A DNA stretch of 7,619 bases from a virus (Duplodnaviria > Heunggongvirae > Uroviricota > Caudoviricetes): IMG/VR virus record IMGVR_UViG_2713896778_000017. One strand, 5' to 3'. Position numbers: made by a program. Positions 1-3,000 of this stretch are shown in pieces. Within the stretch, counting starts at the first letter, position 1. Each line of letters opens with the position of its first letter.

Positions 1-3000
1 CCCGCCGATGCGCGGGTTTTTTTGTACCCAGAATCCTGTGAGCTATACGGAAAGTACACAGAAAGGAAGGTGCGACCACAATTAATAACAAAATCTTAAA
101 AATTGCACATGGCACTATTAGTTTTCTAAATATTGTGTATTTTTTGTATTGCAGGATGACCCTGTAACGAAGTTTGCGTAACAGCATTTTGCTCTACGAG
201 TTTGCCAGCCTCCCCCAGTGGCTGGCTTTTTTATGTCTGTAGCGTCAAAGCAGCAATGTCGCTGGGGCGTCGTGCAATTGGCGTTGAGCTGGAGACTGAA
301 CGTTTTGAGCAGACGGTCAGGGAAGTTCAGGATTTAGTCAGTCAGAACGGATGATATTGCAGGATTAGTTACGTACCGTTATTATCCTGCGCCCGGCCCT
401 TTAGCTCAGTGGTGAGAGCGAGCGACTCATAATCGCCAGGTCGCTGGTTCAAATCCAGCAAGGGCCACCATATCACATACCGCCATTAGCTCATCGGGAC
501 AGAGCGCCAGCCTTCGAAGCTGGCTGCGCGGGGTTCGAGTCCTCGATGGCGGTCCATTATCTGCATTATGCGTTGTTAGCTCAGCCGGACAGAGCAATTG
601 CCTTCTGAGCAATCGGTCACTGGTTCGAATCCAGTACAACGCGCCATATTTATTTACCAGGCTCGCTTTTGCGGGCCTTTTTTATATCTGCGCCGGGTCT
701 GGTGCTGATTACTTCAGCCAAAAGGAACACCTGTATATGAAGTGTATATTATTTAAATGGGTACTGTGCCTGTTACTGGGTTTTTCTTCGGTATCCTATT
801 CCCGGGAGTTTACGATAGACTTTTCGACCCAACAAAGTTATGTCTCTTCGTTAAATAGTATACGGACAGAGATATCGACCCCTCTTGAACATATATCTCA
901 GGGGACCACATCGGTGTCTGTTATTAACCACACCCCACCGGGCAGTTATTTTGCTGTGGATATACGAGGGCTTGATGTCTATCAGGCGCGTTTTGACCAT
1001 CTTCGTCTGATTATTGAGCAAAATAATTTATATGTGGCCGGGTTCGTTAATACGGCAACAAATACTTTCTACCGTTTTTCAGATTTTACACATATATCAG
1101 TGCCCGGTGTGACAACGGTTTCCATGACAACGGACAGCAGTTATACCACTCTGCAACGTGTCGCAGCGCTGGAACGTTCCGGAATGCAAATCAGTCGTCA
1201 CTCACTGGTTTCATCATATCTGGCGTTAATGGAGTTCAGTGGTAATACAATGACCAGAGATGCATCCAGAGCAGTTCTGCGTTTTGTCACTGTCACAGCA
1301 GAAGCCTTACGCTTCAGGCAGATACAGAGAGAATTTCGTCAGGCACTGTCTGAAACTGCTCCTGTGTATACGATGACGCCGGGAGACGTGGACCTCACTC
1401 TGAACTGGGGGCGAATCAGCAATGTGCTTCCGGAGTATCGGGGAGAGGATGGTGTCAGAGTGGGGAGAATATCCTTTAATAATATATCAGCGATACTGGG
1501 GACTGTGGCCGTTATACTGAATTGCCATCATCAGGGGGCGCGTTCTGTTCGCGCCGTGAATGAAGAGAGTCAACCAGAATGTCAGATAACTGGCGACAGG
1601 CCCGTTATAAAAATAAACAATACATTATGGGAAAGTAATACAGCTGCAGCGTTTCTGAACAGAAAGTCACAGTTTTTATATACAACGGGTAAATAAAGGA
1701 GTTAAGCATGAAGAAGATGTTTATGGCGGTTTTATTTGCATTAGCTTCTGTTAATGCAATGGCGGCGGATTGTGCTAAAGGTAAAATTGAGTTTTCCAAG
1801 TATAATGAGGATGACACATTTACAGTGAAGGTTGACGGGAAAGAATACTGGACCAGTCGCTGGAATCTGCAACCGTTACTGCAAAGTGCTCAGTTGACAG
1901 GAATGACTGTCACAATCAAATCCAGTACCTGTGAATCAGGCTCCGGATTTGCTGAAGTGCAGTTTAATAATGACTGAGGCATAACCTGATTCGTGGTATG
2001 TGGGTAACAAGTGTAATCTGTGTCACAATTCAGTCAGTTGACAGTTGCCTGTCAGACTGAGCATTTGTTAAAAAAATTTCGCATGGTGAATCCCCCTGTG
2101 TGGAGGGGCGACTGGTGAAAAATCCTTGCTTGTGATTCATTATCGACACGGGTTCGGTGGTACCAAGCCGAACTCACCGGGAGGCACCCGGCACCATGCA
2201 GTATACAGAGATTAGGCATATACCAAGGCCTCTCATAGCAGGGGCCTTTTTACATGTAAAAAAAGCCCGAGTGGGTTCGGGCAATTGCATGAGATACTCG
2301 TTTTAATAATCGAAAGCATTTTAACCAGGATTCATAAGGCTGCGCAACTGCGCGGCCTTTTTCGTATTTCGGGCTGTAGTCTTCCTTCTGCCATTGTCCT
2401 GTAACTTCCGGACTTCAGCCCGCTCCTCATCTGACTCACACATTATCCCGACCGGGAGGATTCATGGCATTTAAACACTATGACGTGGTCAGGGCGGCGT
2501 CGCCGTCAGACCTTGCGGAACGAATAACTCAAAAACTGAAGGAAGGGTGGCAGCCTTATGGTAGTGCGCTGATTTCGACAGCTGGTTATGGTGCGGAGTT
2601 CATCCAGCCAGTTGTGAGTGAGGGGAGCATCTCATCACCAGAGGAGCCAGGCAACCGTCCGACGACCTCAGCGCCTTCTGTTGCGCCAGAATATTACTAT
2701 GTGATCGCGCTTGCTGGTCAGTCCAATGGTATGTCATACGGTGAGGGACTGCCATTACCGGATACATTCGACAGTCCTGATCCACGAATTAAACAGTTAG
2801 CGCGTCGCAGTACGGTGACACCGGGAGGTGCCGCCTGTAAGTATAACGACATCATTCCGGCGGACCATTGTCTGCATGATGTGCAGGACATGAGCCGCCT
2901 TAACCATCCGAAAGCGGACCTGTCAAAGGGGCAGTACGGAACCGTGGGGCAAGGGCTGCATATCGCCAAAAAATTGCTGCCGTTTATACCGGCGAATGCG

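Follow-up and report, generated by a model that had tools for sequence, protein, structure and literature searches.

A terminated leader RNA ahead of the tRNA and stx2 genes: very probable identification of tR' and StxS in a viral genome fragment

The stretch of DNA analysed here (the window; 7,619 nucleotides (nt), one strand, from the IMG/VR virus record IMGVR_UViG_2713896778_000017) opens with a hairpin and T-run at positions 1–23, continues with about 180 nt of non-coding sequence, and reaches a second hairpin and T-run at 204–232, after which come a methylase gene remnant, three tRNA genes, a further terminator, and the toxin genes stx2A and stx2B. The segment considered in this report, positions 100–235, is very probably the promoter-distal portion of the leader that heads the late operon in a Shiga toxin (Stx) phage of the Q933 type, ending at the terminator tR'. 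Over positions 1–740 the window is 99.9% identical to the Stx2a phage VT2phi_272 (HQ424691), and more than 180 further Stx-phage records match. In VT2phi_272 the gene for a 144-amino-acid (aa) Q antiterminator stops 50 nt before window base 1, so that Q and the late promoter pR' themselves lie outside the window. Positions 1–235 occur exactly in prophage Sp15 of Escherichia coli O157:H7 Sakai, at the locus of the small RNA (sRNA) StxS1, and the published StxS1 experiments therefore concern this very sequence. The copy in the second Sakai prophage, Sp5, shows 13 differences from window 1–235, just one of which (G158 vs A) falls inside the short processed RNA StxS-S. Alleles were compared over 11 sequences from 10 records, the window included (the ten others come from nine records), and positions upstream of the window are given on L001 (HQ424691 24289–30028, phage VT2phi_272), where window position equals L001 position minus 2500.

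Transcription of the segment can be traced to a start upstream of the window. The late promoter pR' overlaps the Q stop codon, and an identical pR' is annotated in the Ss-VASD record. In Sakai, the pR' start was mapped by differential RNA sequencing (dRNA-seq) and the 3' end by Term-seq, with 258 nt between the two in Sp5 as well as in Sp15; the StxS copies of these prophages were given as 94% identical (PMC7547250). A count from a start 7 nt after TATCAT to the last T of the run at 204–232 gives exactly 258 nt in both Sakai loci, with 94.6% identity between them, and the coordinates of that study differ from NC_002695.2 by a shift that is constant at both ends (142 for Sp5, 135 for Sp15). The Sp5 shift was first derived from stx2A coordinates. 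On this geometry the start site is fixed at L001 2472 and window base 1 is +30, transcription beginning 29 nt upstream of the window. A 3-nt insertion (TTA) just before the first hairpin, outside the window, is found in the window's lineage and not in the Sakai copies, so that the long form measures 261 nt there, versus 258 nt in Sakai. A primary transcript of 70–100 nt, as proposed in the initial annotation, does not agree with this distance between pR' and tR', which makes the primary RNA some 258–261 nt long; the species of about 74 nt exists because RNase E cleaves the long form at GU↓AUU, with no nearby promoter involved.

From its start the RNA reads AGUGGUUACAUUGCC, in which a −10-like TACATT (+7 to +12) runs straight into GCC (+13 to +15). 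For the pR' of phage 82, Bird, Strobel & Roberts (2016, PMC5001585) describe a −10-like element together with a pause at +25, the GCC discriminator occupying +15 to +17. Set beside this published description, the two are alike in having a −10-like element directly before GCC, and unlike in the position of GCC, which differs by 2 nt, the leader elements so compared all lying upstream of the window. If the analogy holds, polymerase would make its sigma-70-dependent pause, the one used in Q loading, immediately ahead of the first hairpin (t1).

The hairpin at 204–226 consists of a 7-base-pair (bp) stem, GCCAGCC/GGCTGGC (five G-C pairs), and a 9-nt loop, followed by U6 at 227–232. It folds with −14.5 kcal/mol (z = −3.7; one of 200 shuffled sequences folds as well), and was missed by the consensus terminator scan because the loop limit of that scan is 8 nt. 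The Term-seq 3' end of both Sakai phages, at a distance of 258 nt from the start, coincides with the final T of this run (T232). The intrinsic terminator recognised here in the initial annotation is thus real, being tR' and the mapped 3' end of StxS, and this identity also upholds the proposal that Q antitermination at 204–232 gates stx2. The accompanying suggestion of an StxS-type terminated leader RNA is likewise borne out, by identity with the Sakai StxS1 locus, while the alignment recommended there as a check places tR' inside 100–235 and pR' outside it. Position 238, 6 nt past the T-run, is T in the window and in a contig of Escherichia sp. MOD1-EC7003, and C in the phage and Sakai alleles compared.

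Positions 100–147, which are AU-rich, close off the 5' fragment of StxS-L, the long leader. RNase E cleavage of the long form at GU↓AUU, at +173, releases StxS-S, a stable, Hfq-binding sRNA of 74 nt (PMC7547250). The cut lies at +173/+174 in Sakai and at +176/+177 in the window's lineage, Sakai +173 aligning to U147. The motif at +173 is the only GUAUU of the Sp5 allele; an extra copy, at 137–141, is restricted to the allele shared by the window and Sp15. Hfq binding (by cross-linking and analysis of cDNA, CRAC) and the RNA of about 74 nt in lysogens (by Northern blot) were demonstrated in Sakai for the identical sequence (PMC7547250). The StxS-S of the window matches Sakai Sp15 StxS1 and AU5Stx1 at every base and Sakai Sp5 StxS2 at all but one; across the 11 sequences it is nearly invariant, most substitutions falling in 104–145.

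Rfam 15 (E-value mode, window 1–760) returned the three tRNAs, chance matches and no StxS family, and the minus strand of 100–235 holds no open reading frame (ORF) of at least 40 aa. An exact-pattern scan of species-representative genomes for the StxS-S core found none outside Escherichia/Shigella at such stringency. The sole contig in that scan was NZ_PTRE01000028.1 of Escherichia sp. MOD1-EC7003, where (L018 1–260) homology starts at window 59 and the sequence further upstream is unrelated, the 3' part of StxS being joined to a different module.

Table. Features of the late-operon leader and its surroundings, in window coordinates unless marked L001
Feature	Position	Strand	Source or basis
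pR', TTTACG-16-TATCAT	L001 2438–2465 (35–62 nt before window base 1)	+	933W record AF125520, exact string matching
qut	L001 2479–2486	—	933W annotation, exact string matching
t1, terminator-like hairpin CCCGC-6 nt loop-GCGGG + T7	1–23	+	Scan; 933W 'possible rho-independent terminator'
Part of long leader StxS-L, 5' fragment	1–147	+	Start-site geometry matched to dRNA-seq/Term-seq of PMC7547250
RNase E motif GUAUU, cut GU↓AUU between 147 and 148	146–150	+	PMC7547250 and alignment
StxS-S, stable Hfq-binding 3' sRNA	148–232 (dRNA-seq 5' end) or ~156–232 (RLM-RACE, rapid amplification of cDNA ends mediated by RNA ligase)	+	PMC7547250
Seed CCCUGUAACGAA	160–171	+	Complementary to the activating site in the rpoS 5' untranslated region (UTR), −115 to −102
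tR', intrinsic terminator	204–232	+	Fold; 933W feature 20929–20957, annotated as terminator
C-terminal remnant of DNA methyltransferase gene; new mosaic module begins	244–354	+	RefSeq 'DNA methylase'
pT, putative tRNA promoter TTGCAG-17-TATTAT (3/6 + 5/6)	357–385	+	933W annotation mapped exactly
tRNA genes ileZ (CAT), argN (TCG), argO (TCT)	395–646	+	ARAGORN, Rfam, 933W and Sakai annotations
t3, intrinsic terminator between tRNAs and stx2A	659–684 (933W feature: 660–683)	+	Scan, fold, 933W annotation

The functional part of StxS-S is likewise preserved. The K-12 rpoS leader carries UUCGUUACA at −115, to which the window's UGUAACGAA is complementary, so that seed complementarity is intact. A duplex restricted to the seed and its rpoS site has −29.3 kcal/mol, a value equalled by 6 of 500 shuffles. 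RNAduplex applied to full StxS-S and the full rpoS leader was discarded in favour of this restricted duplex, as the long pairing that it returned was meaningless and did not surpass those of shuffles. The StxS–rpoS pairing has been proven by compensatory mutations, and StxS also represses stx1B, the pairing having been shown in Sakai (PMC7547250).

Several points weigh against reading 100–235 as the end of a tR'-terminated late leader. Both pR' and Q lie beyond the window, and their presence in the source strain would follow from that in near-identical relatives; the transcript mapping comes from Sakai, and the same events would have to take place in the source strain. The coordinate shift relative to NC_002695.2 is supported indirectly, the geometry fitting it in three independent ways. 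Finally, estimates of the short RNA's length disagree slightly, with 85 nt counted from 148, 77 nt counted from 156, and 74 nt on the Northern blot.

The strongest alternative concerns t1 rather than the segment itself. This hairpin corresponds to +30 to +52 of the pR' transcript, inside StxS-L, and has an energy of −8.7 kcal/mol, or −11.2 kcal/mol when two flanking A-U pairs are counted beside the five G-C pairs. A core running from pR' to t1 is 77–85% identical in phages 434, phiP27, Stx2_14040 and others, homology ending right after the U-run; in these three phages the stem is invariant and the loops differ. The match in PhiR55_1 covers the same interval, its hairpin not fitting the search pattern. 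When the block from pR' to tR' was compared by distant BLAST with phages, matches beyond the Stx-phage group and near-identical relatives covered the pR'-to-t1 part alone, with no StxS body. In phage 434 no terminator other than t1 stands between the counterpart of pR' and the holin gene, and in Shigella phage 75/02 and STEC17-183 the stem has undergone a compensatory C-G to U-A change (CCCGC...GCGGG to CCCGU...ACGGG). Since the stem is conserved with varying loops and shows a compensatory change, t1 is under selection as a hairpin, and probably represents the ancestral tR' of this promoter family. The StxS paper (PMC7547250) contains no discussion of it.

It could accordingly be argued that t1 is the functional tR', leaving a leader of about 50 nt and making 204–232 a back-up or unrelated terminator. 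A canonical G+C stem followed by U7, its conservation in phiP27 and Stx2_14040, its position as the only terminator before the lysis genes of 434, and the compensatory stem change would all suit this proposal, and a product of about 50 nt could escape standard RNA-seq and Term-seq libraries. The proposal nevertheless seems improbable, because the 258-nt RNA, the Term-seq end and the 74-nt product in lysogens imply that a substantial fraction of polymerases passes t1 without Q; as the 258-nt RNA is seen in lysogens (PMC7547250), t1 must be leaky in the absence of Q. Moreover, two terminators are not mutually exclusive, and the proposal would rename t1 while leaving the identity of 100–235 unchanged. 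The initial annotation had held in reserve a similar arrangement, with tR' at 1–23 and pR' upstream of the window, of which the placement of pR' stands and that of tR' does not, the mapped 3' end of StxS being at 204–232.

Within the preferred reading, in which the leader ends at 204–232, a more modest role for t1 is possible if tentative, namely that this late-promoter family had t1 as its original tR' and that the hairpin still works as one. In that case the tR' of the literature, at 204–232, would be the second of two tandem terminators, the StxS body (about window 24–241) would be a later, moron-like insertion, and StxS levels in lysogens would be governed by Q-independent passage of polymerase through t1. 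The interval directly before t1 (L001 2493–2500) carries the TTA indel and several substitutions among alleles, and this variation might affect Q loading or t1 read-through, hence toxin or StxS levels; under an ancestral t1, passage through the hairpin could be modulated by these variable positions and the 3-nt indel, which adjoin the presumed pause.

Less probable still is a second source of the short RNA, in which a −10 element at 136–141, 7 nt before 148, would yield a minor primary StxS-S besides the RNase E product. The hexamer is TATATT (5/6) in Sakai Sp5, 933W and the Stx2 II allele, its spacing fits a start at A148, and 148 is the position that TSSPredator scored as a primary start (PMC7547250). 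The monophosphate end recovered by RLM-RACE lies 8 nt further downstream, so that the two ends could be separate species. Against this, the window and Sakai Sp15 have TGTATT, which is without the essential A(−11), and no −35 is found at 16–18 bp, the hexamer at 17 bp, CACTAT (113–118), having 0/6 matches. RNase E dependence has been shown, and Sakai single-deletion strains give roughly equal StxS-S from either copy (PMC7547250). Because the Sp15 copy with TGTATT makes as much short RNA, 136–141 deserves little weight in the window allele. RNase E processing of a pR' transcript is retained as the source of StxS-S.

The remaining candidate is the pR'-like promoter of the initial annotation. Its elements are present where they were noted (TTGCAC at 103–108, CTAAATA at 126–132), as are the hairpin at 204–226 and T6 at 227–232, but pR' itself is annotated and mapped upstream of the window, and the hexamer pair does not rise above chance. 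Taken as a sigma-70 promoter, TTGCAC at 103–108 with TAAAT at about 126–132 matches the consensus at 3/6 + 3/6 and was rejected as a chance match: in the 7.6-kb window at least 3/6 + 3/6 is reached by 627 plus-strand and 592 minus-strand sites, and with some 620 equal or better sites per strand the pair is no more than chance would provide. The −10 readings lying 16–18 bp from TTGCAC (TCTAAA, CTAAAT, TAAATA) give 3–4 matches out of 6, and each is without A(−11) or T(−7); the consensus promoter scan of the window made no call at 103–132. The −35-like element is also poorly conserved: in eight of the ten other sequences T104 is replaced by C, and the equivalent of the element reads TCGCAT in Sakai Sp5, 933W, Stx2 II and ST866, TCGCAC in Ss-VASD, STEC17-183 and phage 75/02, and TCTCAT in FORC_029. 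The mapped start site is some 170 nt upstream of the candidate, and the start predicted from the latter (about 139–141) coincides with neither mapped 5' end (148 or about 156).

A lambda-pR'-like promoter at 103–132, starting near 139–141 and producing a 90–100-nt leader that ends at 204–232, is hence barely credible: beyond the presence of the hexamers themselves, it could draw on a purely predicted −35/−10 pair nearby in the Stx2 II record (equivalents of window 109–114 and 129–134) and on the primary start that TSSPredator scored at the StxS-S 5' end in Sakai (PMC7547250), whereas besides the weak match, with its −10 readings deficient throughout, it is opposed by Sakai Sp5, which has C at 104 and yet makes StxS-S at a level about equal to that of Sp15, by a predicted start that misses the dRNA-seq end (148) by 7–9 nt and the RLM-RACE end by about 16 nt, by recovery of the 5' end in RLM-RACE without tobacco acid pyrophosphatase (TAP), which indicates a monophosphate end, and by the accumulation of the long form upon RNase E inactivation and the mapped pR' start 258 nt upstream of the tR' end (PMC7547250). 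In the Stx2 II record (NC_004914.3, L004 777–802, corresponding to window 109–134) the annotated putative −35 is ATAGCA and the −10 AATATT, with a 14-bp spacer, and tR' is called a 'rho-dependent terminator'; this internal pair with its non-canonical spacer and the rho-dependent label look like prediction artefacts. Nothing on t1 or an internal promoter was gained from Zhang 2018 (PMC6266700), from a review of 2021, from a paper on a reporter assay or from a 2026 paper on sRNAs.

The leader identified here, from pR' to tR', behaves as one mosaic unit, homology to Stx1 phages and non-Stx prophages stopping at about window 241, some 9 nt past the T-run. At its other end, the homology of phage 75/02 and STEC17-183 extends only some 12 nt beyond the −35 on the 5' side; in these two sequences the pR'–StxS block is preceded by a gene for a 197-aa hypothetical protein, not by the 3' end of Q. 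The module that begins at about 244 comprises the methyltransferase 3' end and ileZ, and follows a full-length methylase in many E. coli prophages. The remnant gives a weak Pfam match to N6_N4_Mtase (E = 0.077) over the last 25 profile positions; the mechanical ORF at 202–354 (plus strand), a methylase remnant, reads through tR'. Its proximity led to the original omission of the Sp5 Hfq peak from sRNA predictions (Sy et al., PMC7547250).

Further downstream, the tRNA at 395–470 is called tRNA-Met (CAT) by ARAGORN and ileZ, a tRNA-Ile reading AUA, in 933W, Sakai and RefSeq. A tRNA with a CAT anticodon reads AUA solely after lysidine modification. The terminator t3 folds with −14.8 kcal/mol (z = −4.5). 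The rest of the window is an assembly of pieces. Five runs of exactly 50 N (3327–3376, 4614–4663, 5432–5481, 5829–5878 and 6558–6607) confine contiguous sequence to positions 1–3326, and the pieces between N-runs at 4664–5329, 5482–5726 and 5879–6557 are overlapping or duplicated copies of one VT2phi_272 segment (L016 4253–5404). ORFs spanning N-runs, such as 3251–4324, are artefacts, and the apparent split of a 646-aa esterase-like ORF (2464–3381 / 3251–4324) involves no real frameshift. Window 6608–7170 corresponds to L016 5559–6122 and window 7161–7448 to L016 7425–7712; the IS629 element that VT2phi_272 carries between its lysis region and ant is absent at the junction at 7161–7170 (L016 6158–7371 absent).

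The course of events at this locus would then be as follows. Transcription would start from pR' at the end of Q, and in a lysogen, where Q is lacking, polymerase that passes t1 (a putative partial terminator) would stop at tR' to give StxS-L. RNase E would cut this RNA at 147/148 and release the Hfq-binding StxS-S, the seed of which (160–171) would activate rpoS translation, StxS-S also repressing stx1B. Upon induction, Q would load on polymerase paused just after pR' and carry it through t1, tR' and t3, with transcription of the tRNAs, stx2AB and the lysis genes as the outcome. The start site, the 3' end, RNase E processing, Hfq binding, and the pairing with rpoS and stx1B have been published in Sakai (PMC7547250). 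The leader from pR' to tR' is the switch that silences Shiga toxin 2 and the lysis genes in lysogens, and its by-product StxS boosts RpoS and represses Stx1. StxS, tR' and the remaining elements at this locus are already annotated or published, and as all of this has been published for a sequence identical to the window, no new biology is added. The value lies in annotation: tR' and StxS are to be placed at 148–232 and the late promoter upstream, at the end of Q, and the −35/−10 pairs predicted inside the leader, both in the initial annotation and in the Stx2 II record, are to be disregarded.

Compared with known systems, the locus is closest to Sakai StxS1/StxS2 (EcOnc15; Sy, Lan & Tree 2020, PNAS 117:25055, PMC7547250), sharing the RNase E motif, the rpoS seed, the terminator and, to judge from VT2phi_272, a place just behind a 144-aa Q. 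In Sakai Sp15 the StxS1-type allele belongs to an Stx1 phage, whereas its carrier here is an Stx2a phage of the VT2phi_272/PA2 type. The allele of phage 933W is of the Sp5 type, with 94.6% identity over the leader, and in the 933W record (AF125520) terminator 1, terminator 2, pT and terminator 3 match the window exactly at 1–23, 204–232, 357–385 and 660–683, its feature labels being putative. Terminated leaders likewise accumulate in lysogens in the case of the 194-nt lambda 6S RNA, which runs from pR' to tR', and of the short late leaders known from phages 82, 21, phi80 and P22, no trans-acting function having been ascribed to the lambda 6S RNA (PMC7547250). In contrast to the latter, to which it has no sequence similarity, the StxS leader has two tandem terminators and is processed by RNase E into a trans-acting Hfq sRNA.

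With DsrA, RprA and ArcZ, rpoS-activating sRNAs of the core genome, StxS shares a target, pairing with their same activating site in the rpoS 5' UTR. The active form of ArcZ and RprA is a processed 3' fragment, as for StxS. Unlike these three, StxS is phage-encoded, arises as a by-product of antitermination control, and is unrelated to them in sequence outside the seed.

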